21,037 nt of DNA from contig JAZDJS010000003.1 in assembly GCA_043803745.1 (NCBI GenBank), positions 1 to 21,037 of the forward strand. The letters are read 5' to 3'. The translations under genes and the position numbers were made by a program. Origin of the DNA: an archaeon (GTDB taxonomy: Archaea > SpSt-1190 > DYHY01). Below, in pieces: positions 418 through 19,679 of the stretch. Position 1 is the stretch's first letter. The number at the start of each line of letters is the position of its first letter. Under the pieces are notes generated by a model that was given only the letters and a program-made list of their open reading frames with translations, did no database searches and was not told the origin of the DNA.

Positions 418-1017
418 TCAAAGACCTTGTCTCTTTCTGGTAGTGACTATATACAACACAAAACCTGCCAAACCAATCAAAAGCGCGCCTGCCGCAAGAT
501 AGGGCGTCTTTTTCGAAGCCTGCTGCGGCGCAAGCCCGGCAAGCCGGCAGTCCGGGGGGCAGGTTGTCGCCCGCTCCCCCTTCGAACAAACCCCGTCACC
601 GCAATAGGTTACAAGAGCCCGGTCGACAATCCTTCCGTCCTTTAGGAGGATTATCTCGATTTTCTTCCCTGCGTAGTTCTCCTTTTCCGGGAGGAGGAAG
701 CTTGCCTCCTGGATTCTGCTTGCGCTTTCAAGTCCGGTCGAGGAAATCTCCCCGCCATCGACGAAAAGGGAAACCTTGTACTGCTCATCCGAATATTCGT
801 TCGAAATCCATAAGGATGCTCCGGGTCCGGCAACAATTGAGAAGATTGAGGTATTCTCTATTTTCCCTGTTCCGGAAGCCGAAATCCGCGCGTTAACTCC
901 GCTGATTATTGTGGGCGCTTCTTCCTCTGCTGAAGAAAAGGAAACTAAGGAAGAAAGCGTCAGGGCAAGCAGGAAGACGCCGAGGAAAACGGGAAGGACT
1001 CTTTCTCTGTTAGTCAT
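418..1017 (-). CDS. Exported, C-terminally membrane-anchored surface protein with a CGDGxC...CPxDC motif
   Basis: N-terminal signal peptide (VFLGVFLLALTLSSLVSFSSA), motif YCGDGVCSKGERATTCPPDC, and a C-terminal TM helix (LAAGALLIGLAGFVLYIV) followed by the basic tail RKRQGL. It starts 13 bp after the stop of the giant gene. Confidence 0.8.
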   Translation of the reverse strand: MTNRERVLPVFLGVFLLALTLSSLVSFSSAEEEAPTIISGVNARISASGTGKIENTSIFSIVAGPGASLWISNEYSDEQYKVSLFVDGGEISSTGLESASRIQEASFLLPEKENYAGKKIEIILLKDGRIVDRALVTYCGDGVCSKGERATTCPPDCRLAGLAPQQASKKTPYLAAGALLIGLAGFVLYIVTTRKRQGL

Positions 1018-1030
1018 TTTGCGTCAGACC

Positions 1031-4000
1031 TCACGTCAATCCTACGAGATGCCCGGGGTCAATTGTCTGCGCCCCTCCGCCGCTCCCAAAGCAGCAGCCC
1101 TGGCCGGCAAACCCGTAAGAGGCGCAGGTCCGATCTCCGCTCTGCGGGTTCTGGACCTCGTAATGCAAATGGACGTTTGAGGAACAGCCCTGGTTCCCCA
1201 TCCTCGCTATCGGGTCTCCGGTATGAACGGTCTGTCCAATCTGGACCTCTGCGGAATGGGGCATTATGTGGTAGAAAATCGACCTCCTTCCGTCGGGATG
1301 TTCTATTATTATCACGTTCTTGCTGCATTGAAGACAGCCTCCCCAATCTCCGGCATGGCAGGTTGCGCATTCGTCATAGTTCGGGGCATGGGAGCCGTCA
1401 ACCCAGCAGTTGGTTGTCGCGCCATCCTCAACCTTGATGATTGTCCCGTCGAAATCTGCGTAGATTGGCGCTCCCTCGATGTTCCCGGCAACCCCAAGGT
1501 CAAGGCCGTTGTGGGTGCCGCGGGCGCAATACTCTTCGGTAACAATCCCGTTCGGGACCGGGTTGGCATAGCCGCTTGCAGGTATTCCACCGGGATAGGG
1601 CGGGATTGGACCTAGGGGGGTTCCCGGACCGGTTCCCGGGACTCCCGGATTCCCGAAATATCTCCCGCCAAGCCAATCCCCTTCGCAAAGGGCATCGTCG
1701 CCGTTGAAAATTATTCCGGCGGAAGAGGAGGAAGAAGAAGAGCCTCCCGGATATGTTCCCGAAGTCCCGCAATCGTTGTCAAGATAGGGTCCCGGATTTA
1801 TCGTCGGCCTCCCGGTTTCCCCGGTGCAGCAAGTCTTTCCTGCCGCGTTAGCCTCTTCACAACCGGTGTCCCCTGGATCGCGCTCGCCCTCCATTGTGAA
1901 ATGCAGGTGCGGGCAGTTCGCAATCCCCTGCATCCCGACCCGCGCAATAACCTCCCCCCGCTCAACCCGCGCCCCGGGCTGCTTGAATTTTTCCGGAATC
2001 GAGCCCGGCTGAAGGTGTATGTATGTCGTGACTTTCCCGTCCCCGTGGTCTATCACTATCCTGTTTGTCGAGGCAGCCGAATCCTGGTATGTGTAAAGGG
2101 AGGTGTCAAGGGTCTGGCCGACGCACATTGTTGCCGGGTCCGACCCTGCGAGGACATAGCTTCTGGATTTCCTTGAATCGTCCCTTGCGAAACTTATCGT
2201 CCCTGACTGGGCCGCGAGAACCGGAGTCCCCTCGTCAGCGTAAAGGTCGATTGCCTTGTGCCAGTCCGGCCTTGCTACTGGGGGCGCGCAATACTGGGAG
2301 CCCGCGGCAGCATGGTTTCCGCTCGGGACTGGGTTGCAGTATGGGCCTGGGTTCGGAGTCGATCCTGAAGAGGAACCGGAATTGGCCCCGGACAAAAGCG
2401 GGCTTGTGAACTCGATTGTCCCGACAACCGCCTCGGCTTTGTCATATCCGCAGCAGCCCGGACCATAGCTGTTTATCCCCGATTCGGGGACCATTTCCGG
2501 GACGTAGTATTTCTTTGTCCCGACGCCGGGTGGATCGACCGACCAGATTTCCGCTGCCGGAAGATTCATCAGGGTACATTCGGATATCTGGTTGTTCCCG
2601 CCGGTTCCGAAAATCTTCGCAACAGCGGGGGTTGAAACATCCGCGCCAATCCCTCTTTCGCAATCCCTGTTGGTGTACGCGAACTTGAGGCCGAACTTGA
2701 ACTCGTCCGGGATTCCCTCAAGCGTCGTGCTGTCGGCCGGATTCTCCCGGAGCAGTGTTGAAAGCGCCCATCTAGAGTTCGTTATGGTCACCTCGCAGTC
2801 AAGATAGGAAAGCTTCACGTCAAGCTGCTTTTGTCCGGTGAAATGCGCCTGGTTCAGGGTCGGGAGCGGCGGGGCGAACCAGCATTTTTTATCTACGCCG
2901 ATTGGCCGCGGATATGCGCATCCGTTTAGGAGCTTTCCGCTGTCTGGGCCGCCGAAAATGTCGACTCCTAGTTCCGCGAAGCTCAGGGGGTCTGGAAGGT
3001 CGGCGGTGTTCCCCCAGGGCCTTCCGTTGATGCTCACCTGCATTGCATCGAAAATCGCCTGGCTTCCGGGTCCGGCATTCCTGAAATATTCATATGCTTC
3101 CTCGAAAACCCGCCTCCATGCAAGGACTTTCGCCGGATATTCGGTGAAGAGGGCCGGGTCATAGCCGTAGCTGCTTGAGATGAAAACCGGGAGTTCCCAG
3201 CCGCAGTTCGGCCCGTCCGGGTTTGCCTCGTCAAGGGCGCCCGCTCCCGCATTATGGCTTGAGGCAACATATGCAAGATAGCCGGAACAGTCGGAAAGGC
3301 TGCTGTAATATCCTGAGAGGATTTTGATTATCATGGGAGTCTGGACATCCGGAAGTCGCCAGTATGCGGAATCAATCCCGCCGCCGGAACAGCTCCAGCC
3401 GGGAATTGCCGACCTGTCCTCGTCAATTGTCTCCGCGGGGCATCCCTGGGAATCTGCTTTCACGGGAATGTTCGTCCTTCCGTAGCTTACGCTCGGGTCA
3501 TAACCCGGGAGGTCTTGGAGAAATGCGGAGTTTCCGCAGAACTGGCTTGCCTGGAGAGCGAAAAGCCCGACGCCTCCGTCGACTGTTGAGACGCCGCATA
3601 CGTCGAACATGCTTTCGGATGCCGCGATTGCGAAGAGGAACTCCTTCGGCAGCTCGTCGGTTTCCGGAAAATTGCCGGAGCCTTCAAGCGCGGCTGCCCG
3701 GAGGAGCATCCCTATCACGCTTTCCGGGCTTGAGGCAATCTTGTCATATTCGGCCTGGGCAACGTCAATCAGCCTTTCTCCGGCATGCACGCCGGCTCCG
3801 TCCCGGTAATTGACCTCGGAAAGCTCCTGCCACCATTCCTCCGAATAGCCCCGGCCCGGTTTAAGGTAGCCAAGGCTCCAGTCAATCTTGTAAAGCGGGA
3901 TTTCATAGGAACTTCCGGTTGGCACAATCGGGTTGTTCACGCAAAGGCCCTTCGCTCCCTGCGTCTTGTCCCCGCAGGGGACGTGCATTGCCTCTTCCGG

Positions 4001-7000
4001 CCTAAGGCCGGGGTCTGCATCAGTTATGGCGCAATCGTACCAGGGATCTTCTTGAGCGGAAGAACACACATCATGCCATCCTAGGGGCTCAGAAAAGACA
4101 AGATATGTGCAAGAATGCCCTGATAAGCCAGAACAATCCGTTGATTGAAGATCGCCTCCTGCCGAACAATAATATCTGCTTTTGGTGTGGTCAATTGAGC
4201 AGGCTCCCGGAATCTTATCAAGACAATAGTTGATGTAAACGCCATATTCAGACAAGAGCCCCTCGACCCCGGGGCAGGTTCTCGGACGTCCCGCAGCTAA
4301 CTCATTTGCGTAGCCCTTGAAGCATATTTCAATTGGCGTGCTCCTCCCATTCACGTCAACATCGTTCCTGCAGCCTGCGGAATATGCGCTCCCGCCATCA
4401 TAGCTGGTCCCTAGCCGCGGGTCGGAAAGGTCCGTTGCAGACCAACCGCTTGCTCCGAGCCACCAGTTGCAAACCGGCGGTTGGAGCGGGTCGTTCGGGT
4501 CGCAGCAGGGGACTTGCCCGGCAAGCGCCCCGCCGGGGCAGTTCACCCAGTAGTGTCCGCTGTCTCCTCTTGGCCAGCCGCTGGGCAAGCCTTGCCAATC
4601 ATTAATATCTGACCTGTGGGGGGGCCGTTCAATATCGTCAAGGCTTACGCACATGCAAAGATTGAAGTCTGACGGGTTTGCGGGGCTGTCAAGCTCCTCA
4701 TAGTCGAGGGGGTCGTTGGGTTTCCCGGCCTCGTAGCCGAAAACGCAGCAATGGTCGTTTATGTTCCTGCACCATTTGAACTGCCCGTAGCCCTTGTCGG
4801 GGCTGTTCGGATTCATCTCATGGCAAGTGATGCCGTTGCTTACGCAGATTCCCATCGAGCCGGTTTGCTCATCCTCATAGCAGCTGTTCGGGTTGACAAT
4901 TGCCTCGTTAAGGTTCGTTCCCGGATATTCGACAGAATCGACTGCGCAGGAATAGTTGTATACCTGCGCCTTCAGCTGGCAGGACATCCGGTACGGAACC
5001 GAAAGCTGGCCCTCGCAGGTTATGGCCCCCCGGTTCCCGTCAGGGCAGATATAATCCCCGATTTCGCAGGAATCCGCATCGGAGCGCTTGAAGAATCCGG
5101 AAATGCACTCGCCGTTCGGGCCAAGGGTGCAGGAAACCGAGTTCGGGACAATTGTCCTTGTCGGATGCCTTGCGATAAGGCGCGCTTCCTTCAGTATTTC
5201 GGAAATTGAAAAGCCGACAGCCCCGGTTGAATTGTCCTCGGAATAGACGAGCCCGTATCCGCTAAGATACCTTTCCTGGTTGGCAAGCCGGATTGTCGAC
5301 ACCCGTGTTGTGTGGTTTGCCGTCCCGTAAAGCTCGCCCCAGGGGGAAAAGCTCGGCTCAGCCCGCATTGACGAAAGGACTCCGGAGAATTCTTCCTTGA
5401 CGCATATCGGGCCCACGTCGATTTTCTCCTCCCGGGCGAGGTTGTACGCAGCCCTGATGAAACTCCTTGCCCTTGAATCCGGGGAAACCCCGGGCCAGTC
5501 CGCTGTCATGAAAATCTCCCGGTCCCCTTCGAGTTTCTCGAGGAGGAAGCTTTTGAGGATTTTCAGGCGGCCGAATCCGCTGCAAGTCGAGGGGGTGCTC
5601 GGATTGCAGTCGTCGAATTCCTCCTCAGGCGATTCGCTCCCGGTCGCATAGAACTCGATTATGTCGAAATAGTCCGAGGTGCCGCTGTAATACATTTCAC
5701 TTAGGAAGCTGAACTCGGAAAGGGTTGCATACCTGAACCTGGTGTAATTCACCGGGCGTAGGCTTGCGTCATACATGTAGGGCATCCAATAGTCGGAGGA
5801 CTGGCATTCCATCAGGCCGCCTGAGCCGTCCCTCGGAGTGTCGGGCCTTGTGCAGTCGACGTTCTGGGTCGGGAGGCAGTCTATGTTCTCGTGGGTCATG
5901 TATGCCGTTGAGCAGCGCTCAAGATATTTCAGCCCGAGGCACGGCTCCCCGAGGCAGCCGGTTGAAACCGAACCGCAGCCGGCGACCGAACTGTCAAGAT
6001 ATGTGTCGAAGGATTTCGGGTCGTCGGGATATCTGTCGTATCCGCAGGTCGGCGTCGGGGCAAGCGCCGGGAAGATTATCTTCAGGGACGGGCCAGCCTT
6101 TTTCGCCTCAAGGGAAGTGAGCTTCAGCATCCGGGCGAAGTCAATTGGCTCGATTCCCGCCTTTGACCATTCCTTTGCGGAATTCGGGAATTGCCAGGGG
6201 ATCAGGTAGTTTATCCCGTATTCCTCCCACCTCAGGTGCGAGACAAGCTCGCCCGCGAACTTGGCGAAATCGTTGATTCTTTCCGGAGCGGGCGCGGTGT
6301 TCCTGTCCAAATCGAGGGGCTTGTCAGCTTCGGCAACAGCCCATTCCGGAGCCCATCCAAGAACGGGGATTACCTCTATCCCCCTTCCGTAAATCCCTTC
6401 ATAGAACGCGTCAATCTCTTCCCAGTTGTATTCCCCATCCTCCTCCGGCTGGATATCCCGCCATTTCACAGGAAGTTTCACCCAGGTTGCCCCGACTGAG
6501 GCGGCGTTCTCGATTGCCTCCGCGCTGGGTTCCTCAAGGTAAAGGCAGCTTTTCTTGTATCCGCTCTCGGCCGTCGCGTTGTCATAAACTGAGATGTTCA
6601 CCCTGTTCGAAACCTCGTATTCCGAGAAAAGCTCCGCGTATTCGTTCAGTTTTGCGGGGAAGTTGTACCTTATGTTCTCAAGAACGCGGTCGACCAACGG
6701 CTTCAGCGGCCCGCTCACTTCCTGGGGGTTCACGACAATCTCGAAAGCCCTGTCGCTGTCCGGGCAGCGCTCCGGAAACTCATCGGTTTCCCTTGTTGTC
6801 AGGTAGGGCTTGCCCAGCGGGGTCATTTCAGACGCTTGGATGAAACCGCCGTTTTCGGAAACCTCTATCACGGCAAGCTGCAGTGAATATTCCGCAGCCT
6901 TCCTGATGTAAAGGCGCGCCTCCTCGCTTACGTGGAGCGCATTGATGAACTTGTTTTCGGCTGACTCGACAGTTGCGTAAAGGTCAATTGGCCTGTTGAG

Positions 7001-7087
7001 GGCAATCCAGACGTATGCAATGACGCCTATTGCGAAGGCAATCACCAGGAGCCCGAGCCATTCCGCAGCCTGGGATTTCCGTTTCAT
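1031..7087 (-). CDS. Giant (~2018 aa) pilin-leader, Cys-rich multidomain protein: GH-A-like barrel + SLT-like domain + two M23 peptidase domains
   Basis: Start reassigned to ATG 7087 (MKRKSQAAEWLGLLVIAFAIGVIAYVWI), which overlaps the upstream TGA as ATGA. GH5/GH39-like segment GATWVKLPVKWRDIQPEEDGEYNWEEID...GIEVIPVLGWAPEWA (~5380-6560). SLT-like FLFAIAASES...GVGLFAL...SHNAG...EYPAKVL (~3100-3760). M23 #1: HKAID...YIHL...HLHF (~1890-2280). M23 #2: HNGLD...FYHI...HLHYEV (~1100-1560). Confidence 0.9.
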   Translation of the reverse strand: MKRKSQAAEWLGLLVIAFAIGVIAYVWIALNRPIDLYATVESAENKFINALHVSEEARLYIRKAAEYSLQLAVIEVSENGGFIQASEMTPLGKPYLTTRETDEFPERCPDSDRAFEIVVNPQEVSGPLKPLVDRVLENIRYNFPAKLNEYAELFSEYEVSNRVNISVYDNATAESGYKKSCLYLEEPSAEAIENAASVGATWVKLPVKWRDIQPEEDGEYNWEEIDAFYEGIYGRGIEVIPVLGWAPEWAVAEADKPLDLDRNTAPAPERINDFAKFAGELVSHLRWEEYGINYLIPWQFPNSAKEWSKAGIEPIDFARMLKLTSLEAKKAGPSLKIIFPALAPTPTCGYDRYPDDPKSFDTYLDSSVAGCGSVSTGCLGEPCLGLKYLERCSTAYMTHENIDCLPTQNVDCTRPDTPRDGSGGLMECQSSDYWMPYMYDASLRPVNYTRFRYATLSEFSFLSEMYYSGTSDYFDIIEFYATGSESPEEEFDDCNPSTPSTCSGFGRLKILKSFLLEKLEGDREIFMTADWPGVSPDSRARSFIRAAYNLAREEKIDVGPICVKEEFSGVLSSMRAEPSFSPWGELYGTANHTTRVSTIRLANQERYLSGYGLVYSEDNSTGAVGFSISEILKEARLIARHPTRTIVPNSVSCTLGPNGECISGFFKRSDADSCEIGDYICPDGNRGAITCEGQLSVPYRMSCQLKAQVYNYSCAVDSVEYPGTNLNEAIVNPNSCYEDEQTGSMGICVSNGITCHEMNPNSPDKGYGQFKWCRNINDHCCVFGYEAGKPNDPLDYEELDSPANPSDFNLCMCVSLDDIERPPHRSDINDWQGLPSGWPRGDSGHYWVNCPGGALAGQVPCCDPNDPLQPPVCNWWLGASGWSATDLSDPRLGTSYDGGSAYSAGCRNDVDVNGRSTPIEICFKGYANELAAGRPRTCPGVEGLLSEYGVYINYCLDKIPGACSIDHTKSRYYCSAGGDLQSTDCSGLSGHSCTYLVFSEPLGWHDVCSSAQEDPWYDCAITDADPGLRPEEAMHVPCGDKTQGAKGLCVNNPIVPTGSSYEIPLYKIDWSLGYLKPGRGYSEEWWQELSEVNYRDGAGVHAGERLIDVAQAEYDKIASSPESVIGMLLRAAALEGSGNFPETDELPKEFLFAIAASESMFDVCGVSTVDGGVGLFALQASQFCGNSAFLQDLPGYDPSVSYGRTNIPVKADSQGCPAETIDEDRSAIPGWSCSGGGIDSAYWRLPDVQTPMIIKILSGYYSSLSDCSGYLAYVASSHNAGAGALDEANPDGPNCGWELPVFISSSYGYDPALFTEYPAKVLAWRRVFEEAYEYFRNAGPGSQAIFDAMQVSINGRPWGNTADLPDPLSFAELGVDIFGGPDSGKLLNGCAYPRPIGVDKKCWFAPPLPTLNQAHFTGQKQLDVKLSYLDCEVTITNSRWALSTLLRENPADSTTLEGIPDEFKFGLKFAYTNRDCERGIGADVSTPAVAKIFGTGGNNQISECTLMNLPAAEIWSVDPPGVGTKKYYVPEMVPESGINSYGPGCCGYDKAEAVVGTIEFTSPLLSGANSGSSSGSTPNPGPYCNPVPSGNHAAAGSQYCAPPVARPDWHKAIDLYADEGTPVLAAQSGTISFARDDSRKSRSYVLAGSDPATMCVGQTLDTSLYTYQDSAASTNRIVIDHGDGKVTTYIHLQPGSIPEKFKQPGARVERGEVIARVGMQGIANCPHLHFTMEGERDPGDTGCEEANAAGKTCCTGETGRPTINPGPYLDNDCGTSGTYPGGSSSSSSSAGIIFNGDDALCEGDWLGGRYFGNPGVPGTGPGTPLGPIPPYPGGIPASGYANPVPNGIVTEEYCARGTHNGLDLGVAGNIEGAPIYADFDGTIIKVEDGATTNCWVDGSHAPNYDECATCHAGDWGGCLQCSKNVIIIEHPDGRRSIFYHIMPHSAEVQIGQTVHTGDPIARMGNQGCSSNVHLHYEVQNPQSGDRTCASYGFAGQGCCFGSGGGAQTIDPGHLVGLT

Positions 7088-7815
7088 TTCTCGCCGCACC
7101 TCCCATCCGAAACGAACCCGCTGCAGCACTCGGTTCCGCTCGCGGCCGGCGCGCCAGTCTCCTTGCAGAATGGCCTTCCGGCATCGGACGAGGAATATCC
7201 CTCGGCAATCGAAAGGTCGTAGATGAACTGGGCGGTTAGCCTTGCCTGGTTGTCAATGAACGGAGGCACCGGGATGAAGTAGGAGTTGCCGTTCCTTGCG
7301 CTCGCAATCATCCCCTGCTCTCCAAGGGTTGCCTCGAGGGCGGAGCAGTTCTGGCTTTCCTCGGAATAGAGCCCGGGTGAAAGCATCTGGGTCAGGATGG
7401 TCCCGCCGTCGGGCCCCGCAAGCGCATAGTCGAAGCAGTGGTCGGAATATTTGGCAAGCTCGGTTTTCGCGAATTCGCCGAGGATTTCCCTGATGAGGCT
7501 GTCTGCGACAAGGGTTTCCCTGCCAAGGTCATATTCGGTCCTTCCCGTCGCTGCGGAAACCGCCACTAGGTCGTAGAATGAGATCGGGAAATGATTCAGG
7601 TAGCCGACGGTCTTGTAGGAAAGCGCCTGGAGCGTCGGCTTCTGATCCCCCTCGAGGGTCTTCTCCGAAATGTTGAACTGGACCTTGAGCTGGGTTGTCG
7701 CGATTATTATGACCGCCCCTATCACAAGGATTGCCGCGAGAATGACTATCAGAAGCGGCATCCCGAACTGGGCCTTTCTTCTGCTATGCGCCAGTTCCAA
7801 CGCCTCCCTCGACAT
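7084..7815 (-). CDS. Type IV pilin-like protein (class III signal peptide), no recognisable enzyme domain
   Basis: RRKA|QFGMPLLIVILAAILVIGAVIII leader and a Cys-rich C-terminus (FCKETG...ECCSGFVSDGRC). The start is uncertain: ATG 7815, TTG 7800 (after GGGAGG) or 7851. It overlaps both neighbouring genes. Confidence 0.75.
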   Translation of the reverse strand: MSREALELAHSRRKAQFGMPLLIVILAAILVIGAVIIIATTQLKVQFNISEKTLEGDQKPTLQALSYKTVGYLNHFPISFYDLVAVSAATGRTEYDLGRETLVADSLIREILGEFAKTELAKYSDHCFDYALAGPDGGTILTQMLSPGLYSEESQNCSALEATLGEQGMIASARNGNSYFIPVPPFIDNQARLTAQFIYDLSIAEGYSSSDAGRPFCKETGAPAASGTECCSGFVSDGRCGEK

Positions 7816-9064
7816 CCCAGCAGGAAGAGAATGAAGTGTAGTAATAAACAATCCGCTCTGCGGACGCCCTTATGTTGCTCCTGGGGTCCGGGGTTTCAGT
7901 CCAGTCAATGTAGCGCTCAACCTGGTCGACTCCGGCAACGTTCGCAAAGGCAACGTAATTGACAATGCATTGGCCTGCCGATTCCGCGCCGGAGAAATAA
8001 TCCGCGTTCGCCTTCAGGTTCTCGGCAAGGAGCTCAAAATCCGCGGAAGCAGTCAGGCTCGGGTCGAATCCGGTTTCAAGGAACAGGACTGCCCGCACAA
8101 GGTTCGGGTCAATCCCCGCATCCGAGGAAACCTGCTCGATTTTCTCGGTAATGGGCGTCCCGTCCGAGGCAGTCAGGACCTTCAGCCCGTCGATAAGGGT
8201 TGCTTCCTCAAGGGTGAAATGCCTCGATATTTCGGAAAGGGGGAGCTCCTCGCACCGGAGGTATTTGGTCACCTGCCTGTCCGGGTCCGAGCGGGCAATG
8301 TACGGAAGGAGGATTTCCGAATAAGACGTCCTTTCGGTTCCGAGCGGGCGGGGTTTTTCGTAGAACTTGTTTATCAGGGAAACCGCGGTCAGGTATTCCT
8401 CTTCAAGGGAATCCTCGTCGAAGCATTCCTCTGTTTTCTTGACGAAAACGTCCAGGACGCCGAAATCGTACTTCCTTATCTGGTTCCCCTCGTAAACCGC
8501 GATCGAAACCGGGAGCGCATAAGCCCCGACAGCCGCCTCGTCTCCGGCATCGGACCACATGCTTGCCGAAATTGACCTGTCATAGGTCGATTCTACGTAT
8601 TCTTCAACTTCCGTCTGGAGTGAATATGGAAGAACCTTGAACGCCCCGAAAACCCACATCAGTCCCGTGCTAGAATCCTTTACGGTGGCAGCCCAGGAAT
8701 AGCATTTCGTCCTCAGCTCGTAAGGGGTTTCCGTTTCAGTTATTCCCGAGCCTCTGCTGAATTCGGCGAGCCTGAGGAATTCGGAGAACTGCTTGTCGAG
8801 CTTCCGCGAGTCAAGGATGTTCTTGTGTATCCCCTGCTGCTGGGTTGTGTCAATGAGGAAGTCCGGGGCGCCGGTCATTCTTGTAGCAACCAGCACCGCG
8901 AACCTGTTCTGGTTGTGCTCCTCGATGATTGAGATGAACTGGGTTTGGGAGACTATCAGTCCCACCGCGATTGCAACTATCACTACGAGGAAAATCAGGG
9001 ACATGAGAAGGAATGACGGGTTCTGCGCTTTCCTCATGTGCGTTTCCATTGCAATTTCGGCCAT
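7784..9064 (-). CDS. Pilin-like protein with a C-terminal degenerate SLT-like domain
   Basis: MRKA|QNPSFLLMSLIFLVVIVAIAVGLIV leader. The C-terminal EKIEQVSSDAGIDPNLVRAVLFLETGFDPS matches the SLT N-terminal helix and catalytic-Glu motif, but no GLMQ motif follows. Confidence 0.8.
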   Translation of the reverse strand: MAEIAMETHMRKAQNPSFLLMSLIFLVVIVAIAVGLIVSQTQFISIIEEHNQNRFAVLVATRMTGAPDFLIDTTQQQGIHKNILDSRKLDKQFSEFLRLAEFSRGSGITETETPYELRTKCYSWAATVKDSSTGLMWVFGAFKVLPYSLQTEVEEYVESTYDRSISASMWSDAGDEAAVGAYALPVSIAVYEGNQIRKYDFGVLDVFVKKTEECFDEDSLEEEYLTAVSLINKFYEKPRPLGTERTSYSEILLPYIARSDPDRQVTKYLRCEELPLSEISRHFTLEEATLIDGLKVLTASDGTPITEKIEQVSSDAGIDPNLVRAVLFLETGFDPSLTASADFELLAENLKANADYFSGAESAGQCIVNYVAFANVAGVDQVERYIDWTETPDPRSNIRASAERIVYYYTSFSSCWDVEGGVGTGA

Positions 9065-9073
9065 TTTCAGAAT

Positions 9074-10321
9074 TCAGAAAGCGCAGATTGAGGGCGTCTT
9101 TGCGCTGCAGCCGGCTTCAGTGAGGCCTCCTCTCCTCAATGCAAAGCTGATTCTTTCCTTATAGCCTCCTTGCGGAAGGCTTGTGAGCGATTTCTTCAGG
9201 ACAAGGGTGTATTTCCCGCCCCTCGGTATGTGGAAGACCGCGGGTTCGATGTTCGAAACCGGAAGGTAAAACACCGCGCCGGTCCGGTCATCCGTCCGGA
9301 GGACTGCAACGAAACCGTATCTCGCGGAGCCAAGACCCCTTGACTCGAAGAAGCGGGCGAATGCGGTTCCCCTCGCAACCTCGCATGCGTTCTGCTTCTC
9401 GACAGTGTAGCGGCTCCCGTCGCCGAAAGTCATTGCGGAAAGGACAGGCCCCTCGTTTGTTGCCGTGAAAATCGGCAGCTCGAGGAACTCCGCATCCTGC
9501 AGGTTCGAGACCCAGGATTCCGGACCGCCAAGGGCATCGATGAAGCCGGTCATCCATTCTGTAAGGTCTCCGTCCCCGTCGAAATCGTATATGTCAACGC
9601 CCCCAGTCATCCCGAAGGTCCCCCCGCTATATGCGCCGAGCGCAGCCTGGAAATCCCCGCCGAAATAGTCAAGCTTCGTCTTTAGTTCCCTGGCGCCGGC
9701 GTTTATGTTTGCCTCGGGTTCCCTGTTCTCATCAATGCAGGGCACGGCCATTATCCCGCAGTATCCGGAGCCGAGGCTTTCCCCTGAAAGCAGCCCGGAA
9801 GTTGCATAGTCCGGGGCATAGTGGTTTATCCCTGACTCCAAATATGCAATTGCGAGCAGGTATGGCAGGGGGACGCCATAGTTCTCGGAAGCCGCATCGA
9901 AGAGCTCCTTGTAGGGGCCCTCGGAATAAAGCTCGAATGCCTCGTTCCCGAGTTCGCTGACCGGGCAGTATGTCCCTAGATCCGGGACCTCCCTGAGCGT
10001 CGGACCTACCTTTGTGCCCTCCTCGGTTTCGGTTCCGATTGCAATGTCGTAGCTGAAAAGCCCCGGAAGGGTTACGCAGTAAATCCCGTTCTGGGGCGCC
10101 GAGGAAACCGCAGTTACCGCGCCGGCAACCGCCCTTGAGACAATCCTTGCCTCAAGGAAATTGGATGTTGTCGCGAGGAAGGAAACCTCGTTCGCAATTC
10201 CCCAGATTGCGACAATCATTGCAATCGAGACAACGACAAGCTCAAGCATCGTTGAAGTCAGGAAAGCTTGAGCAGGCCTCCTTCTGAGAGAATTGCGCCT
10301 CCGTTTCCCAAAGCCACCCAT
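9074..10321 (-). CDS. Pilin-like protein with an internal SLT/lytic transglycosylase domain
   Basis: Basic leader RRRPA|QAFLTSTMLELVVVSIAMIVAIWG. All three SLT motif regions are present: ELFDAASENYGVPLPYLLAIAYLESG, GIMAV...PEANINAGARELK, and FGGDFQAALGAYSGG. A DFDGDGD acidic loop follows. Confidence 0.85.
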   Translation of the reverse strand: MGGFGKRRRNSLRRRPAQAFLTSTMLELVVVSIAMIVAIWGIANEVSFLATTSNFLEARIVSRAVAGAVTAVSSAPQNGIYCVTLPGLFSYDIAIGTETEEGTKVGPTLREVPDLGTYCPVSELGNEAFELYSEGPYKELFDAASENYGVPLPYLLAIAYLESGINHYAPDYATSGLLSGESLGSGYCGIMAVPCIDENREPEANINAGARELKTKLDYFGGDFQAALGAYSGGTFGMTGGVDIYDFDGDGDLTEWMTGFIDALGGPESWVSNLQDAEFLELPIFTATNEGPVLSAMTFGDGSRYTVEKQNACEVARGTAFARFFESRGLGSARYGFVAVLRTDDRTGAVFYLPVSNIEPAVFHIPRGGKYTLVLKKSLTSLPQGGYKERISFALRRGGLTEAGCSAKTPSICAF

Positions 10322-10347: not shown

Positions 10348-10355
10348 TATATTAA
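10348..10355 (-). promoter_or_regulatory. Archaeal TATA box (TTAATATA) at the head of the pilin/hydrolase operon
   Basis: TTAATATA 27-34 bp upstream of ATG 10321, in the 76-bp gap after the SPFH gene. Confidence 0.55.
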
Positions 10356-10397
10356 TCTGAAGGATTCGGGCGCACAGGGAGCTGGAGAGCGGGCGTG

Positions 10398-11441
10398 TTA
10401 AGTTGACTTGCCCTCTTCCGGAGCAGCCGCCTTCGCTCCTTCCCCTCCGGAATCATCCTGTATGTCGGGCTCTCCTTCGTTCTCGACGGTCATTCCTCCG
10501 CCCACTGTGCGAAGGCCGACCGGATAAAGCGCGGCAGCCGCTGCCTTGAGCGCAGAGGCGGCGTTCGGATTCTGCGTGTCTGAAAATGCTTTCGCAAGGT
10601 CAGTGAACTGGGTGGGGAAGAATAGCTTCGTTGACTTGCCCTCGGCAATCCTCGGGAGCCCTTCCTTGATGTAAAGGTAGTTGAGGGCGTTCTGGTCGAG
10701 CTTCTTTGCGGCATCTCCGAGCGCCTCTATCATCGTCTTCTGCGCCCTCGCCTGGTATTGCGCGGCAGCCCATTCCTCCTTCGCCTTCCTTCTTGCGTGC
10801 ATTGCAAACTGGATGTTCTCCGGAATCGTGACGTTCGTTATCTGGACGTCGATTATCGTCACCCCCCACTCCGAAACAAGCGGTTCCATCTTTACCTTGA
10901 CAAGGTCGTTCACCTTCTCAAGCTCGCCGAAAAGCTCGTTGAGGGTCAGGTCGGATGCGATGTCCCGGAGCGCCCCGTAAACGAAGCCGGCCGCGGTTTT
11001 CTCGAAGGTCTTCACCTTGAGGACCGCTTTCTTCGGGTCAAGGACCTGGTAGTAGACAATCGTGTCAATTGCCGTCCGGATCTCGTCCGTCGTGATCACC
11101 TCCTGGGGCGGAAGGTCGAACGATTGGACGCGCAGGTCGATTACCTCGACAGATTCCAGGAAAGGTATCAGGAGGACCCAGCCCGGCCCGGCGACCCTGT
11201 GGAAATGCCCCATGCGGAAGACGACCGCCCGCTTGTATTCCGGGACTTCCAGGACGAATCCGGCGTTGAAGAGGAGCTGGAAAATGAAATAGACGAGGAC
11301 GAGCCCCAGCGCAACATATGCAGCAATCCTTATTTCGGGGAAGAAGTAGGCTGCAATCGCAACCATCACGAGGGCGAGCAGAGTAAGCTCGATCTTCTCA
11401 GTTACATATTCGCGGACTGTGCGGTACTTTGCCTTTGCCAT
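10398..11441 (-). CDS. SPFH/band-7 (stomatin-like) membrane protein
   Basis: Two N-terminal TM segments, then VPEYKRAVVFRMG...GPG...IPFLES...IDLRVQSFDLPPQEVITTD...YYQVLDPKKAV...LRDIA...WGVTIIDVQI. These are classic SPFH motifs. Confidence 0.93.
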   Translation of the reverse strand: MAKAKYRTVREYVTEKIELTLLALVMVAIAAYFFPEIRIAAYVALGLVLVYFIFQLLFNAGFVLEVPEYKRAVVFRMGHFHRVAGPGWVLLIPFLESVEVIDLRVQSFDLPPQEVITTDEIRTAIDTIVYYQVLDPKKAVLKVKTFEKTAAGFVYGALRDIASDLTLNELFGELEKVNDLVKVKMEPLVSEWGVTIIDVQITNVTIPENIQFAMHARRKAKEEWAAAQYQARAQKTMIEALGDAAKKLDQNALNYLYIKEGLPRIAEGKSTKLFFPTQFTDLAKAFSDTQNPNAASALKAAAAALYPVGLRTVGGGMTVENEGEPDIQDDSGGEGAKAAAPEEGKST

Positions 11442-11493: not shown

Positions 11494-12093
11494 CTAGAGA
11501 TACTTCCTCTTTATCACGAACTCGAATCCGAGGAGGTTGAAGTAGAAGAAGTCGCGGTTGTATTTCTCGACGTTTATCCGGTTTATGCTGCTTATCAGGG
11601 TGTCGCCGAGGAACTTGCGGAAGAGGTTCATCGAAAGGTCGTATGTCCGCTCAATCCGGTCATGACCGCGCTCGAAGAAAACCATTGTCGCGATAATGTT
11701 CTTTGTCGTTATGAAGCCCATTGCCAGCTTGGTCATGTTCTCCTTGTATTCCGTCCTAAGCTCCATTGAGACCGCGTTTTCCATGTGTATTTTCTTGTCA
11801 TAGACGAACCGTATCTGGACGACTGCGACGAAAACCGAAATCTCGAAGGTTTCCGCCTGGACAAGGTCGCTTATCAGCCCCTGGTTGAATTCGCGCGTCT
11901 TGACCGATATCTGGGCGCGGTTCGGAATCTTGTAAACGATTTCAACCGGCGCCTTTGCCGCCATGTTGATTGTCTTTATTGAGCCGTTATAGAAAATTGA
12001 TAGGAGGCGTCCTATTGCGAGGAGAAGTCTCTGCTTGCCCTCGGGGCCTGTAATCGAGGTCCCAATGTTCGCTTTGTAGACTATTACGCCCAT
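11494..12093 (-). CDS. Hypothetical protein (199 aa)
   Basis: ATG start with TTAAATA (12126-12120) about 27 bp upstream. Codon usage resembles the neighbours, and it fills the gap co-directionally with SPFH. No motif recognised. Confidence 0.7.
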   Translation of the reverse strand: MGVIVYKANIGTSITGPEGKQRLLLAIGRLLSIFYNGSIKTINMAAKAPVEIVYKIPNRAQISVKTREFNQGLISDLVQAETFEISVFVAVVQIRFVYDKKIHMENAVSMELRTEYKENMTKLAMGFITTKNIIATMVFFERGHDRIERTYDLSMNLFRKFLGDTLISSINRINVEKYNRDFFYFNLLGFEFVIKRKYL

Positions 12094-15372: not shown

Positions 15373-15939
15373 ATGGCAGACGCAGAACTTTTGAGGGTTT
15401 ATTTCGCGCATCCGAAACCGCTCTATCCGCAGGTTATCCCGGGAATAGAAGAAGACCTCCTCGCAGAAATAAATCGGCTCCTTCCGGAAGCGCTCGGAGT
15501 CGAGAAAATTGAAATTGAAAATCCGAGTGAACCTCAACATCAGAAAATCGTTGGTGCGCTCTTCAGCAGAAAACGCGACGGAATGGCTTACTTTACAACT
15601 TCGCTTGTGCCGAGCTGCGACGCGACTATTTATTGCGGATATCCGGAAATGGAAGGAGACCCCGCCGGCGGCTACATTGGCGCAGGCGTTGCAAAGGAAG
15701 TTCAAAGAGCTTTTGAGCTCAATCAGCCCGTCTTCGAGCTGAGATATCGGGTTGCTGGGAACGACCGCCTTGACGGCTATGCGGAACTTGTTCGGGTCAC
15801 TGAGCTTGACCCGTCCCGAAGGTTCAGCTCGGACACTGGACAGGAAATCAGACTAACTTCGGCAAGAAACAGTCACTACCGGGAAAAATACAAAAGCATC
15901 CAGCAGTCGAGCGACCTCTCTGCTGCAAGGAAGCGATAG
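15373..15939 (+). CDS. Nucleoside 2-deoxyribosyltransferase (NDT)-like fold protein
   Basis: RVYFAHP...NPS...LVPSCDATIY...IGAGVAKEVQRAFELNQPVFEL follows the NDT/N-glycosidase pattern (xYxAxP; D-h-h-h; G-x3-E-x3-A-x5-PV). Confidence 0.6.
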   Translation: MADAELLRVYFAHPKPLYPQVIPGIEEDLLAEINRLLPEALGVEKIEIENPSEPQHQKIVGALFSRKRDGMAYFTTSLVPSCDATIYCGYPEMEGDPAGGYIGAGVAKEVQRAFELNQPVFELRYRVAGNDRLDGYAELVRVTELDPSRRFSSDTGQEIRLTSARNSHYREKYKSIQQSSDLSAARKR

Positions 15940-15963: not shown

Positions 15964-16992
15964 ATGCCAAAAAATTGGAGATTTGTAGGACCGACTGGAG
16001 AGGAACTGGCACTTGATGGGGGCGCCATAGAGCTATACACTGCGACGATTGCACAAGCTGAGAAATCTCAGGCGAGCGCAACAAAGTCAGGTAGTGAAGT
16101 CCATTCCGCGGGCGCTCATGTCCTTAGCCTGACAAACTTAAGCAAAAGGATTCCTGGCGCAATAACCAGATGGCTCCCGAGCGGGGGGCGCGCCCTTTTC
16201 GCGCGGGCAGGGAATTTCGAAACCGGCGATTCCCCGGCGTTCCACGCTGACCCGAACGCGGTAATTGGCCTTTTACAATATATGCCAAAAGACGAAGTAA
16301 AGCGAGTTGATGTTATTGCCTTCCACAAGAAGGACGCGCCCGGCGCGCCAGCCAAAATGTGCGGGCTTTGCAGGGGCTTCCTTGCCGACTATTTGCATCC
16401 GGAAACGGCAATAATCGGGGCTGGCGGAGCTGACAACGTTGCGTTCATAATCCCTTGGGAAGATTACCTGCCAAGGGAAGCGGGTCATGTCAATTTCCCG
16501 GGCGCTCTGAGAGATGACATACTTACCGCCGGCTGGAATGCAATACAAGCTTCCGAGCCCGTTTACCGGAAGGACATCCCGAGGGCTGCAGGTGCTTTCG
16601 GGGGCGCCGACGGAAACTACGTATGGATGCCCTTGAGCGGATATACTTCATGGAGCCGCGCGCCGGGGCCGGTTATCCAGGCGTTCTCGGCTGCCGACCT
16701 TGACGCTTTCGAGAAAGCGCGTGCACAGGGGCTTGAGAAGCCTGAAGAGGCCCTTGCATATGTCCCCGGAAGCTTCATTTTCATCCAGGAAGGGAGCGTT
16801 CCAAGAGTTACCCAGCCCCAGGCTCAGGCAATTGTCGATTTCGTTAACAAGAAGGGCGGCAAGGGATATCCTGTCGGGGACTTTCCGGTTTTGACCGTGG
16901 GCATCGATGCCTCCTCTGGAAATCCGGAACTAATCGACGCAAGAATCACGACCTGCGGAGACCTGCTTCCCTACACTTTCACGTCGAAGTGA
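15964..16992 (+). CDS. Two-domain cytidine deaminase-like protein
   Basis: Domain 1: AGNFE...FHADPNA...KMCGLCRGFLADY, giving Zn ligands H, C, C. Domain 2: NAIQASEPVY...AGAFGGADG...GPVIQAF...VTQ...DLLPYTF resembles the non-catalytic repeat of homodimeric Cdd. Confidence 0.7.
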   Translation: MPKNWRFVGPTGEELALDGGAIELYTATIAQAEKSQASATKSGSEVHSAGAHVLSLTNLSKRIPGAITRWLPSGGRALFARAGNFETGDSPAFHADPNAVIGLLQYMPKDEVKRVDVIAFHKKDAPGAPAKMCGLCRGFLADYLHPETAIIGAGGADNVAFIIPWEDYLPREAGHVNFPGALRDDILTAGWNAIQASEPVYRKDIPRAAGAFGGADGNYVWMPLSGYTSWSRAPGPVIQAFSAADLDAFEKARAQGLEKPEEALAYVPGSFIFIQEGSVPRVTQPQAQAIVDFVNKKGGKGYPVGDFPVLTVGIDASSGNPELIDARITTCGDLLPYTFTSK

Positions 16993-17105: not shown

Positions 17106-19679
17106 CTAGGGAAGCTTCACCGGGTCTGCGAATTTCTCATAGCTCTTGTCAAGGTAGAAGGTGACATCAGCCTTTCCCCTGGTCGGATCAAAGCTAACCA
17201 CTGCGAAACCGTGGGGCGAACCGGGATAGCCGCTTGCGTTGGTGAAATCGCCTTCGCCTTCCTGTCCGGGAACTAGCACGCGGATATTAACGGAATCTAT
17301 TCCTGCTTTTGGGTCCTTCCGGTTCCTAATTGAAAGCGAGCCCCTGTGCCTGTCGCCAATTGCCCCGAGCGCGGCATCGTAAAACTGGTCAGCCTCGATT
17401 TGCCTGCTAAGGTCTCCGCTTCCAACCGGAGTGTGCGCGAGGAATGCAACATATTCTTCAAGGGGGACGCGCCCGCCGCTTTCGGCAACCGCTCCGCTTA
17501 CGGTGACTATTCGGTCCCAGTATTTTTGGTCAACGCCATGGGTTGCAAGGGCCGGCTCGGTGATAATTCCCCTCGGCCTTCCGCTCTTGCCAATGTGCTG
17601 CCCCTGGGCGCGCGCGTAGTTTTCCATCCCGTGTTCGAAAAGCCAGGTGGTGAGCTCCGCTCCGCCCTCGACTTCGAGGAACCTTTGCTGCTGGATTGTG
17701 AGGTCGGAAACTGGAATCGCCTGCCCTAGGCGGCGCATGAAGTTCCCTAGCAGATATTTCTTTTCCGCATCGCTAAAGTCGGTAGCGTTCACAATCTCGT
17801 CAATCCGTTTCGCCGACCGCGCCGGGTCATATCCCAAACCGACGTATTCTATGTGGGCGCCCTGCAGGTCGTCGCCCGGGTCGAACCAGTATTTTATTTT
17901 CATCCCGCCTTCCACAAGGTGCTTGATCATGCGGGCCGCCCGCATCGTGTTCTCTTCGTTTGAGAGATCTTCCCCGTCCCTTATGTTCCGGGCAACTTTC
18001 TCAACCTGTTCAGGGTCGCCGCTGGCTTTCGCCTGCGCAAATTCGCCAACCTGCCTTGCAGCTGCCTGCTCGGGCCTTTCGGCATATTTCGAGAAATGGT
18101 GGACATCTCCAATATGCCTGTCCCCGAAAACCAAGGCGGTGGTTGGATTTCCATCCCTCTTAGCCCCTTTTGCTCTGCGCTCAAGCTCGGTGTCGGTATA
18201 TGACCGCACCCGTATGCTTCCCTTGTTTTCGCCGACCGTGACAATGCTTGCGCCGGGGTTGAGAAGTCCCTTGTCAGCCATCTGGAGTATTGGGTCGGAA
18301 TAATGGGCTGAAAGGCCCCATTCGGCCAGGAATTTGTAGACTTCGGCCTCGGAAACCATTGGAGGCGCAGTAAACGCGAAGAAAGGTTCATCGCGGGGCC
18401 CGATAACCTGCATGTGCGTTGTCCCGCTATCTCCGGAAATTATCAGGTCATGGGGTTCCCTCATGAGAACTCCGCTGTCAAGGATTCTGCCAACCGAATC
18501 CCCGACCGGATTCTTGGTTCCGAGGGAAGGGGAATATGCGACGCCAATGACAATCCCGCCCTGCGTTTTCACGCTGCTCAGGGTTTCCGCTTCGCCAGCT
18601 TCTGCTGCCGAGGCAAGCGCGAAGGTGCTCGGACCCGGAACAATAATCCAGCTGTCCCCGAACATTTGCTTGTATTTCTTGCGCTCGTCAAGGGTTGCGA
18701 GGAACCGGGCAACTGCCTGGTCCGGGACATCTGCCTTTAGCTGGCCCGTTAGGAAGTAGAAACTCCTAGCGCCGGTATCCTGGCGGTCAAGGGTTTCCTC
18801 CTTTCTCTGGGCTGCTTCGTCAATTGCCTCCTTTGCCGCAAGATATCTCCAGGTTTTCAGGGTTGCGAGGTCCTCCCTGCCTGCGGCGCCTATTTGCACA
18901 AGGCCCTCCGCAAGGGCAAGCCAGCCTGCAGGGCTGGGCCTGTTCTCCGCTTTTTGCTTCTCCGGATATTTCGTCAGGAACCTTGCCGCAGTCGTGCTGT
19001 GCGAAACTGCCTTGAGAAGCGCTTCGCGCCTTTCCGGCTCAAGGCCTTTGATGTTATCTTCAAGCTTCGCATATAGCTTGTGTTTGGTTTTCTCATCAGG
19101 AGCGTCCCCCCTTATTGCGCCGATATCTGTGATGTAGGTCTTTATTGCTTCCCGTATGTTATACTCAAACGATTGTCCGGGAACAAGCAATTTCAACGTT
19201 TGCGGCCCGGCAAGCGGGGCAAGGATGTTTTCCGCCCGTTTTCCATATGTGAAAATGTCGGAAGGTGTTGAAATGTTTGCTGCAAGCCTTGCTGCAGCTT
19301 CAAGGATTTCGGGATCCTCAAGTGCAAGGGCCCCGTATTTTTGCTTGAAGAGCCGCTTTCGGGTTCTTCTGCTGTCCCTCTCGCCCGCAACTACTTCCGG
19401 AGCGTCCCCGTTGAATGGCGGGAGCTTTGCGATTGACGCAGCCTTTTCAGTGTTCGTTACGCTAAGGCGGAAAGGCCATCTTGGGAACGGGTCGTAAAGG
19501 ACAATTGCGTCAAGGTCATCCGGCCCAATTCCCTCGCTAGCAACGGCTGCGGCAACGCCTTTGAAAAGTCTAAGATCATTGGGCTGGTAAATCGTCCCCA
19601 GTGCGGTAGGACCAAGCACCAAAATGTTCGCTTCTGCAGTTCCCATTCTTTCCACTCTTTGAGCTTGTTTTTTTGCCAT
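17106..19679 (-). CDS. Large (857 aa) calcineurin-like metallophosphoesterase-domain protein
   Basis: The C-terminal half has the motifs in order: LVFGDRHIGD (DxH), PGDDLQG (GD), QGQH (GNH-like), FLAHTP (H), IGDRH (GHxH-like). The N-terminal half is helical with a possible degenerate repeat (HDLIISGD). Confidence 0.7.
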   Translation of the reverse strand: MAKKQAQRVERMGTAEANILVLGPTALGTIYQPNDLRLFKGVAAAVASEGIGPDDLDAIVLYDPFPRWPFRLSVTNTEKAASIAKLPPFNGDAPEVVAGERDSRRTRKRLFKQKYGALALEDPEILEAAARLAANISTPSDIFTYGKRAENILAPLAGPQTLKLLVPGQSFEYNIREAIKTYITDIGAIRGDAPDEKTKHKLYAKLEDNIKGLEPERREALLKAVSHSTTAARFLTKYPEKQKAENRPSPAGWLALAEGLVQIGAAGREDLATLKTWRYLAAKEAIDEAAQRKEETLDRQDTGARSFYFLTGQLKADVPDQAVARFLATLDERKKYKQMFGDSWIIVPGPSTFALASAAEAGEAETLSSVKTQGGIVIGVAYSPSLGTKNPVGDSVGRILDSGVLMREPHDLIISGDSGTTHMQVIGPRDEPFFAFTAPPMVSEAEVYKFLAEWGLSAHYSDPILQMADKGLLNPGASIVTVGENKGSIRVRSYTDTELERRAKGAKRDGNPTTALVFGDRHIGDVHHFSKYAERPEQAAARQVGEFAQAKASGDPEQVEKVARNIRDGEDLSNEENTMRAARMIKHLVEGGMKIKYWFDPGDDLQGAHIEYVGLGYDPARSAKRIDEIVNATDFSDAEKKYLLGNFMRRLGQAIPVSDLTIQQQRFLEVEGGAELTTWLFEHGMENYARAQGQHIGKSGRPRGIITEPALATHGVDQKYWDRIVTVSGAVAESGGRVPLEEYVAFLAHTPVGSGDLSRQIEADQFYDAALGAIGDRHRGSLSIRNRKDPKAGIDSVNIRVLVPGQEGEGDFTNASGYPGSPHGFAVVSFDPTRGKADVTFYLDKSYEKFADPVKLP

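Follow-up and report, generated by a model that had tools for sequence, protein, structure and literature searches.

What does an archaeon do with enzymes that cut the bacterial cell wall, and why should these be built into proteins that resemble pilins? The question is raised by four consecutive genes, here called g1 through g4, in a contig of 21,037 bp that was analysed in its entirety (contig C3 of genome G000, hereafter the window). The genome comprises 1.23 Mb in 51 contigs and is 90% complete. It is small, and it is archaeal because it encodes Ribosomal_L15e. The view taken in the first-pass annotation of the window, that the organism is probably a DPANN-type archaeon, is supported. Peptidoglycan hydrolases in genomes of DPANN archaea have so far been read as hints of bacterial hosts. 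Our analysis indicates that g1–g4 are probably the conserved end module of a divergent machine of pilus type that is widespread in DPANN archaea, armed in this lineage with peptidoglycan-hydrolase cargo.

The four genes lie on the minus strand, in the order g1 (9074–10321, 415 amino acids (aa)), g2 (7784–9064, 426 aa), g3 (7084–7815, 243 aa) and g4 (1031–7087, 2018 aa). The lengths of g3 and g4 are counted from ATG codons at 7815 and 7087; their open reading frames (ORFs) open further upstream, at TTG 7851 and GTG 7129, respectively. A gap of 9 nt separates g1 from g2, whereas g2 overlaps g3 by 32 nt and g3 overlaps g4 in an ATGA, so that the earlier description of four co-directional genes with gaps of no more than 9 bp and two overlaps, one of them ATGA, agrees with our reading of the ORFs and junctions. 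The TATA box reported ahead of g1 can also be read in the sequence, as the TATA-like ATTAATATA (10348–10356, minus strand). It is located ~30 nt 5′ of the ATG of g1, within the 76 nt that separate this gene from the stop codon of the adjacent Band7 gene, and is a candidate promoter. The translations further confirm the basic stretch, A/S-Q and hydrophobic helix noted at all four N-termini. The leaders are RRRPA-Q, RKA-Q, RRKA-Q and KRKS-Q for g1 to g4, the hyphen marking the candidate cleavage position, and each is followed by a hydrophobic helix.

The architecture is seen most clearly in g1. The SLT domain (GH23-type lytic transglycosylase) occupies residues 140–235 (9617–9904, minus strand), and matches Pfam PF01464 with E = 7.2e-9 and 35.7 bits compared with a cut-off of 21.3 bits. 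The catalytic glutamate motif is present as E162-S163, and the enzyme looks active on the basis of this motif and the Pfam score. Alignment with small orthologues in related genomes shows that g1 is the small protein, a pilin-like core of ~170 aa, with an insertion of ~240 residues that includes the SLT domain and is placed between two strands. The insertion is flanked by a conserved pair of cysteines, C82 and C405. At both its termini g1 is similar to ORFs of 160–190 aa in genomes G001, G003, G005 and G006 (tblastn/HMMER E = 1e-9 to 1e-7), and tblastn with the small protein of G003 gives a match at either end of g1 (E = 1e-9 and 6e-5). An AlphaFold2 model based on a 17-row alignment (pLDDT 74.8) opens with a helix of 55 residues (19–73, in a block of pLDDT 79–93) and seven β-strands, of which those at 79–99 and 334–397 are split by a helical lysozyme-like domain at 126–330. 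Type IV pilin-like proteins are characterized by a hydrophobic stretch of ~20 residues just behind the cleavage site, within a long N-terminal helix that packs on a β-sheet. In a Foldseek search the top matches to the model were a cell-wall hydrolase, g-type lysozyme, MltC, LtgA and Slt, with a best E of 5e-3.

The core of g1 is itself a family. When 1.84 billion representatives were searched exhaustively with a profile, only 20 members were obtained at E ≤ 1e-3, most of which are 149–182 aa in length, and many of which start with [KR]G-Q or [KR]A-Q. Pilins adjoining a canonical type IV pilus (T4P) locus on contig C36 likewise have K/R-[GAS]-Q leaders, together with sub-threshold matches to PF04021, which speaks for the pilin reading. 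Three members are of ~390 aa; the one tested carries SLT, and two are identical or nearly so to the SLT-bearing orthologues in genomes G002 and G004. Two further members, P0021 (696 aa) and P0023 (363 aa), have long C-terminal additions that belong to no Pfam family, and thus the g1 core can take up cargo of kinds different from SLT. With g1 we have a clear natural example of a pilin-like core into which a catalytic domain has been inserted.

Is the rest of the module likewise separable from its enzymes? The phylum of G000 is represented by only 17 species genomes in the collection used. The four enzyme-bearing genes recur, with their order unchanged, in G004, of the same genus, and in G002, of the same family. 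In G001 the module encodes proteins of 169, 213, 206 and 327 aa without any enzyme domain, which are orthologues of g1–g4 in the same order. Sizes of about 170, 210, 200 and 330 aa are typical of these small orthologues, and enzyme-free versions of the module are found in G001, G003, G005 and G006. The four-gene order is fixed across three families. The existence of enzyme-free orthologues means that the machine works without the enzymes. In G001 the module ends a run of small genes, each opening with a hydrophobic helix, and the run is located behind a 760-aa ATPase of the T2SSE family (Pfam E = 9.4e-11) and a 708-aa polytopic partner. The G003 module likewise ends a run of helix-leading small genes, on a contig that begins inside the partner gene, and in the enzyme-bearing G002 the orthologous ATPase is found 13 kb upstream on the same contig. 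The leaders of the orthologues in these relatives include RKG-A, RRG-Q, RRA-Q, RKS-L, RKG-I and RRG-V. A predicted complex of the four small G001 orthologues (with g4 as partner) scored 0.85 and partner-replaced controls 0.00 and 0.01; a control in which chain 2 was replaced gave 0.72, so the prediction is not used either way.

Some peculiarities of the relatives may be recorded here. G005 and G006, with genomes of 3.6–3.8 Mb that are 98–99% complete and 5–6% contaminated, share their assigned class with genomes of 0.6–1.2 Mb, and their enzyme-free module has a g2 of 544 aa and a g4 of 430 aa. In G002 (L019:4530-6781) two extra leader-bearing genes, of 199 aa (RRRGQ) and 551 aa (GRKG), directly precede g1; none adjoins g1 of the window.

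In G000 the candidate parts of the machine are spread over several contigs. Contig C34 (3147–8575, locus L006) carries the ATPase, which is 61% identical to that of G001 and 86% to that of G004, together with a polytopic partner of 702 aa with ~9 hydrophobic segments in a Kyte-Doolittle scan, and two small genes with transmembrane (TM) helices. Contig C11 (475–8361, locus L125) carries nine orthologous leader-bearing genes of 156–625 aa, none of which has a Pfam family. The first-pass annotation proposed to look elsewhere in the genome for a prepilin peptidase and a pilus ATPase; the inventory includes one A24 prepilin peptidase (contig C31), five T2SSE ATPases and several T2SSF genes. Of a type IV filament (T4F) context made up of ATPase, platform and peptidase, synteny with the ATPase and its polytopic partner is seen in G001 and G002, and in G000 the candidate parts are divided between C34, C11 and, for the A24 enzyme, C31. 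We find no basis for the ‘retractile’ filament of the first-pass annotation; the machine has one ATPase, and no search was aimed at a retraction ATPase.

Both g2 and g3 are related to the small proteins. The N-terminal domain of g2 (residues ~1–224) matches the small orthologues with an hhalign probability of 97.9% (E = 4e-13), and g3 matches its own with a probability of 98.2% (E = 2.8e-14). Word-index searching gave families of at least four members for g3, at least two for g2 and at least two for the N-terminal part of g4, in an index that missed a 31%-identical G002 protein. g3 has a cysteine-rich C-terminal tail, and has neither a Pfam match nor an enzyme domain. The C-terminal half of g2 gave no match in Pfam, in PDB profiles, or by hhalign against the SLT domain of g1, and is not recognizable as an SLT/GH23 domain. 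There are leads in the form of an ESM Atlas match (0.86, with TM-scores of 0.44–0.58) and a match to EmtA at E = 2, and a candidate catalytic glutamate is replaced in one of the four orthologues, that of G002. We have therefore set aside the identification of this domain as SLT other than as a lead; it is possibly a degenerate lysozyme-like fold.

At the end of the module lies the giant g4, which runs from leader and helix through a conserved N-terminal domain, a GH39-like stretch, a cysteine-rich region and an SLT-like stretch to two M23 domains. The N-domain matches g4-like proteins of the relatives (tblastn E = 1.3e-7, and by alignment). The GH39-like stretch, of the clan GH-A TIM-barrel type, spans residues ~229–357 (6059–6445, minus strand), and was found by phmmer against PDB as a match to the β-xylosidase 4m29/4ekj at E = 1.5e-4 over ~130 residues; its best Pfam match, Glyco_hydro_42 at E = 0.059, is below the cut-off. 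The SLT-like stretch (residues ~1150–1330; 3140–3682, minus strand), with the motifs ASES, GLFALQ and HNAGAG, is also sub-threshold in Pfam (E = 0.047, 13.7 bits), and phmmer against PDB gave nothing relevant. An ESM Atlas search provides a lead at 0.94, with 25 of 30 matches being SLT clusters. Of the three SLT-like domains claimed in the first-pass annotation, that of g1 is secure by Pfam, that of g4 is a sub-threshold candidate, and that of g2 lacks support from Pfam, PDB or hhalign. The two M23 metallopeptidase domains ascribed to g4 are verified by PF01551. The first (residues 1624–1750; 1880–2260, minus strand; HKAID and HLH) was found with a whole-protein E of 1.9e-34, and the second (residues ~1872–1994; 1148–1516, minus strand; HNGLD and HLH) with E = 1.9e-37 in the C-terminal piece (window 1034–2449), the best stretch being 312–434 of that piece. 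Both are above the PF01551 cut-off and contain HxxxD and HxH, the zinc and catalytic motifs of M23, and with these intact the M23 enzymes look active. The first-pass annotation likened the terminal protein to a giant adhesin; with a GH39-like TIM-barrel stretch and the N-domain of a conserved family it is not simply an adhesin.

The orthologue of g4 in G002 (L019:11077-17940) has a different order of modules, with only one M23 domain and a second GH39-like barrel. This second copy matches PF01229 at E = 7e-4, below the cut-off. The G002 protein has a true SLT domain following a conserved ‘LDCEVT’ region, matching the SLT of g1 at E = 6e-17, and a 330-aa gene on the opposite strand separates g3 from g4 in that genome. 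Cargo is being shuffled within one family.

What, then, is the substrate of these enzymes? Mur_ligase_M was not found in the 90%-complete G000 genome by a search that was positive in 12 of 14 control genomes, including two archaea. The murein-type substrate is therefore probably foreign. Taken with the existence of enzyme-free orthologues, this suggests that the enzymes are cargo aimed at foreign walls.

Is the arrangement found beyond the phylum? The ATPase is widespread in DPANN, with full-length orthologues of 45–62% identity in 80 DPANN-labelled loci, for which the submitter labels are mostly Woesearchaeota or Nanoarchaeota. The two closest loci are labelled Altiarchaeota and Undinarchaeota, the latter being the G001 contig. 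At locus L113 the ATPase operon ends with genes encoding proteins of 278 aa (KRG leader, M23 at E = 1.7e-15), 155 aa, 192 aa and 416 aa (KKG leader, SLT at E = 8.5e-26). We surveyed 31 genomes in which the locus extended at least 9 kb downstream of the ATPase, and found M23 anywhere in the genome in 11 and SLT in 12. Twenty further SLT/M23 ORFs could be inspected with their flanks. Six have a leader of their own and come after at least four consecutive leader-bearing genes, and a seventh comes after five of them; the remaining 13 appear to be in Sec-type or other contexts. Of the 31 other DPANN genomes surveyed, at least 7 have an SLT/M23 protein at the end of a run of leader-bearing genes. 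The N-domain of g4 matches the terminal proteins of Woesearchaeota-labelled runs with an hhalign probability of 92.8% (E = 3.9e-7, over 51 columns), and together with the ATPase it offers a sequence handle for finding such systems.

We may tentatively extend the proposal to a wider group, as a possibility that falls short of being probable. Many DPANN archaea besides this lineage might own a dedicated and unclassified pilus-type machine, made up of an ATPase of ~760 aa, a polytopic partner of ~700 aa, about nine pilin-like genes and a conserved end module of four subunits that holds exchangeable tools. The cargo of the end module would vary with lineage, being nothing, SLT, M23, SLT with M23, or a multi-enzyme chain of 2,000 aa, and the large extracellular murein transglycosylases of Woese- and Pacearchaeota would be its terminal subunits. 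If this is true the machine would be a wall-breaching filament, and bacteria would be the hosts or prey of a sizeable share of the DPANN.

A second recurrent arrangement was observed in DPANN genomes, at L126 (G035:C27), L128 (G022:C69), L133 (G024:C20) and L102:34-3557. A gene of ~400 aa with a KKGQ-type leader is followed by a protein of ~900–1,200 aa with M23 and/or SLT that has no N-terminal helix, and then by two to four lipoprotein-like genes. At L102 this lies directly upstream of the ATPase operon. Full-length DPANN-type ATPases (48–50% identity) also occur at L055 and L104, in bins labelled Armatimonadota and Acidobacteriota; these contigs are probably mis-binned. In the 2.5 Mb genome containing L055 (G027) there are also four M23 genes of the typical bacterial kind, along with four for SLT.

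Each subunit comprises a short basic leader ending in G, A or S, a hydrophobic N-terminal helix and a globular domain. The cargo is carried as the SLT domain in a loop of g1, as a possibly degenerate lysozyme-like domain at the end of g2, and as the GH39-like, SLT-like and two M23 modules on the conserved N-domain of g4. From the observed gene order, domains, homology, synteny and recurrence we infer a mechanism in which the A24 prepilin peptidase would trim the leaders, and the N-terminal helices could then join the four proteins together within a filament or short pseudopilus, or at its tip end, the ATPase and its partner being the builders of this structure. Enzymes that cut glycan and those that cut cross-links would thereby be kept where the machine touches a bacterium with a murein wall, which might be opened locally for attachment, feeding or lysis.

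A number of observations weigh against reading g1–g4 as the end of a pilus-type machine, beginning with the leaders. These have a short positive segment with G, A or S at −1, but the motif is not specific. The pattern [KR][KR].?[GAS] precedes the helix in 40 of the 92 G000 ORFs with a single N-terminal TM helix, and glutamine after [GAS] is enriched only ~2–3 fold relative to amino-acid composition in a genome-wide regular-expression search with a per-residue control. We have therefore rejected the motif as stand-alone evidence for a pilin, and the pilin reading must rest on other evidence. Inspected by eye against the FlaFind-type pattern, the four leaders do not fit strictly: position −2 is P in g1, position −1 is S in g4, and in g2 polar residues come after Q. 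There is no glutamate at +5, and in many relatives of g1 there are 10–15 polar residues between [KR]G-Q and the helix, so an uncleaved signal anchor is possible. The curated pilin and class III families PF04021 and PF07790 gave no match at E ≤ 0.1 in g1–g4, nor were they matched by the small orthologues or the C11 genes. Foldseek of the whole g1 model against PDB, in which the SLT part dominates and no match reaches E ≤ 1e-3, returned no pilin, and the model of g3 (5-row alignment, pLDDT 54, N-terminal helix at 4–66) is unreliable. The 702-aa partner has no T2SSF match. In G000 and G004 the four-gene module is apart from the ATPase, beside a Band7 gene. Further afield, SLT or M23 lies downstream on the ATPase contig in only one of the 31 surveyed genomes, that of L113. 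Hidden Markov models (HMMs) of g1–g4 matched only the G001 contig among the 80 ATPase loci, missing the Woesearchaeota-labelled genes at E ≤ 1e-3, so that orthology of those modules is not established save for the g4 N-domain match; the parallel with these lineages rests on architecture and that single 51-column match.

Much of this could be accommodated if g1–g4 were plain type II signal-anchor proteins, fastened to the archaeal membrane by basic stretch and helix, forming no filament and receiving no cut from a prepilin peptidase, which act as cell-bound exo-enzymes to digest murein debris (necromass) or nearby bacteria as a source of nutrients. The unspecific leaders with their polar spacers, the lack of a Pfam pilin match and the detachment from the ATPase in G000 and G004 would all be compatible with this, and a GH39-like barrel suggests general polysaccharide digestion. 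Yet simple anchors have no need of a strict order of three enzyme-free partner proteins, while the order is fixed in three families at the end of a leader-bearing run beside the T2SSE ATPase in G001 and G002, the arrangement recurs in distant DPANN genomes, and g1 is modelled as a 55-residue N-terminal helix with β-sheet. We consider the signal-anchor explanation unlikely, if the most serious of the alternatives. The pilin-like nature of g1–g4 put forward in the first-pass annotation is supported by homology and synteny with the T4F-like operon of the relatives together with the g1 model, and not by the leader motif. A different possibility is that the machine is a pseudopilus like that of the type II secretion system (T2SS), with g1–g4 as parts of a piston or gate and the hydrolases shed or briefly presented; in that case it would serve to secrete wall-lytic enzymes and not as an adhesive pilus. 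Each machine has ~13 distinct pilin-like genes, for the most part large, and one ATPase, and in this it is closer to T2SS or Com systems than to a pilus with one major pilin, and four conserved minor subunits are a hallmark of both T2SS GspH-K and T4P priming complexes. Against this, archaea are not known to have a secretin or outer membrane, we know of no demonstrated archaeal T2SS, and the enzymes are covalently fused to pilin-like cores instead of being free cargo with Sec or Tat signals. Nor did a protease site or shedding signal come to light, although no search was aimed at one. We regard this as improbable.

Could the hydrolases serve the archaeon’s own envelope, making way for the machine across a wall of its own that resembles murein or pseudomurein? 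VirB1, FlgJ and BfpH are specialized lytic transglycosylases of bacterial secretion and pilus systems, and bacterial loci for T4P, type IV secretion and flagella often encode such a dedicated SLT. The location of the enzymes in the machine’s own gene set would be in keeping with such a role. But path-clearing requires far less than two M23 domains, two or three of the SLT type and a GH barrel, and the enzyme-free modules of four genomes show that the machine has no need of them. Self-wall remodelling was rejected since no Mur ligase was found in the 90%-complete genome, and we give the idea very little credence. An armed terminal module of a pilus-type machine, with its enzymes directed at foreign walls, is the explanation best supported.

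How does such a module compare with known systems? The bacterial complexes GspH-I-J-K and FimU-PilVWX with PilY1 are thought to cap and prime the filament. They resemble g1–g4 in having four consecutive different minor subunits, with the last or an associated one much larger, but no sequence relationship was seen, no search having been aimed at one, and the archaeal machine is without the other bacterial parts. The likeness is one of description, and ‘tip complex’ is to be understood as an analogy. The modules of known modular bacterial pilins are adhesive, including vWA and lectin domains. In these proteins, such as PilB and PilC of Streptococcus sanguinis (reviewed in PMC10191384 and PMC9934059), a pilin module made up of leader, α1 helix and small globular core is fused to a functional module that the filament displays, and several minor subunits are encoded by adjacent genes as in the window. 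The window differs in that murein hydrolases stand in place of adhesive modules, that in g1 the module is inserted and not appended, and that it is archaeal, the assembly of its subunits being a prediction. Closer in lineage are the sugar-binding proteins of the Sulfolobus bindosome and other ‘functionalized T4F’, non-pilin proteins whose signal peptides are of class III, that are covered in the main text of a 2026 archaeal T4F census (PMC13705601). These too have an archaeal pilin-type N-terminus and a large domain, proposed to be mounted on a T4F base for work outside the cell; the cargo in that account is solute-binding proteins linked to ABC transporters. The same text describes DPANN T4F genes as scattered and mostly unassigned.

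The enzymes also have published counterparts. Woese- and Pacearchaeota encode large extracellular murein-like transglycosylase proteins (PMC8204110), and GH23 genes are noted in ‘vampiristic’ Woesearchaeota (PMC9723730). As described in the available text, these DPANN SLT proteins are, like g4, very large (up to 3,000 aa); they are secreted, and are proposed to bind and degrade the walls of bacterial hosts or prey. They are treated there as stand-alone extracellular enzymes, whereas g4 closes a series of four pilin-like subunits connected with the operon of a T2SSE ATPase and also contains M23 and a GH39-like module; fam00969 of PMC8204110 is a candidate for the same family. That archaea have peptidoglycan hydrolase (PGH) homologues, as stated in the first-pass annotation, is on record in PMC12352652, the available text of which includes M23 homologues in four Nanoarchaeia genomes and the Halogranum enzymes Woldo and Danwoldo, archaeal M23 and glycosidase enzymes that kill bacteria. 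Like the window enzymes these are of M23 or glycosidase type, acquired from bacteria and aimed at bacterial murein, but they are soluble, secreted by Tat or Sec, and have PG-binding domains. Of the archaeal PGHs in that study 68% have no signal peptide recognized by SignalP 6, and only 32% have Sec or Tat signals. This would be expected if some carry pilin-type leaders like those of g1–g4, which may explain why most lack a recognized Sec or Tat signal.

In literature searches covering main texts we found no report of a link between murein hydrolases and pilin-like subunits. The words ‘pili’, ‘pilus’ and ‘pilin’ are absent from the texts of PMC8204110, PMC9723730 and PMC12352652, and ‘peptidoglycan’, ‘hydrolase’ and ‘transglycosylase’ from the main text of PMC13705601. 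The earlier suggestion that the arrangement is undescribed must be narrowed, since giant DPANN transglycosylases and archaeal peptidoglycan hydrolases are in the published text of PMC8204110 and PMC12352652; it stands for the connection with a pilus, which we found in no report. The arrangement is a novel form of the modular pilin and functionalized T4F, and it recurs across DPANN. A mode of delivery of the enzymes is not known to have been proposed before, and their fusion to, or insertion into, pilus-type subunits provides a concrete and testable model for it.

It remains to describe the surroundings of the module. Upstream of g1 the window contains a Band7/SPFH gene (10398–11441, minus strand; Pfam Band_7, E = 3.7e-39) and a gene of 199 aa (11494–12093, minus strand) that is a conserved neighbour of the g1–g4 module in relatives. 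The Band7 gene flanks the module also in G001 and G003, and synteny of the Band7, 199-aa and radical SAM neighbours is kept in G001, G003 and G004 of the same phylum; tblastn of the neighbour genes of G001 and G003 against the G000 genome gave E = 1e-108 to 1e-37. With this synteny and a GC content of 0.551 that is inside the range of the genome, a bacterial or chimeric contig was ruled out. No Pfam family was matched at E ≤ 0.01 by three further ORFs of the window, at 17106–19679 (minus strand, 857 aa), 15373–15939 (plus strand, 188 aa) and 15964–16992 (plus strand, 342 aa). Downstream of g4 the ORF list contains another gene of 199 aa (418–1017, minus strand), for which no Pfam match is above the cut-off; it begins with a signal-like helix, is rich in CxxxC over one stretch, and carries a TM helix at the C terminus. 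A similar-looking gene of 229 aa comes directly after the giant gene in G002, and by eye the two have in common the pattern CGDG.C.KGE...C.PDC and the C-terminal TM helix.

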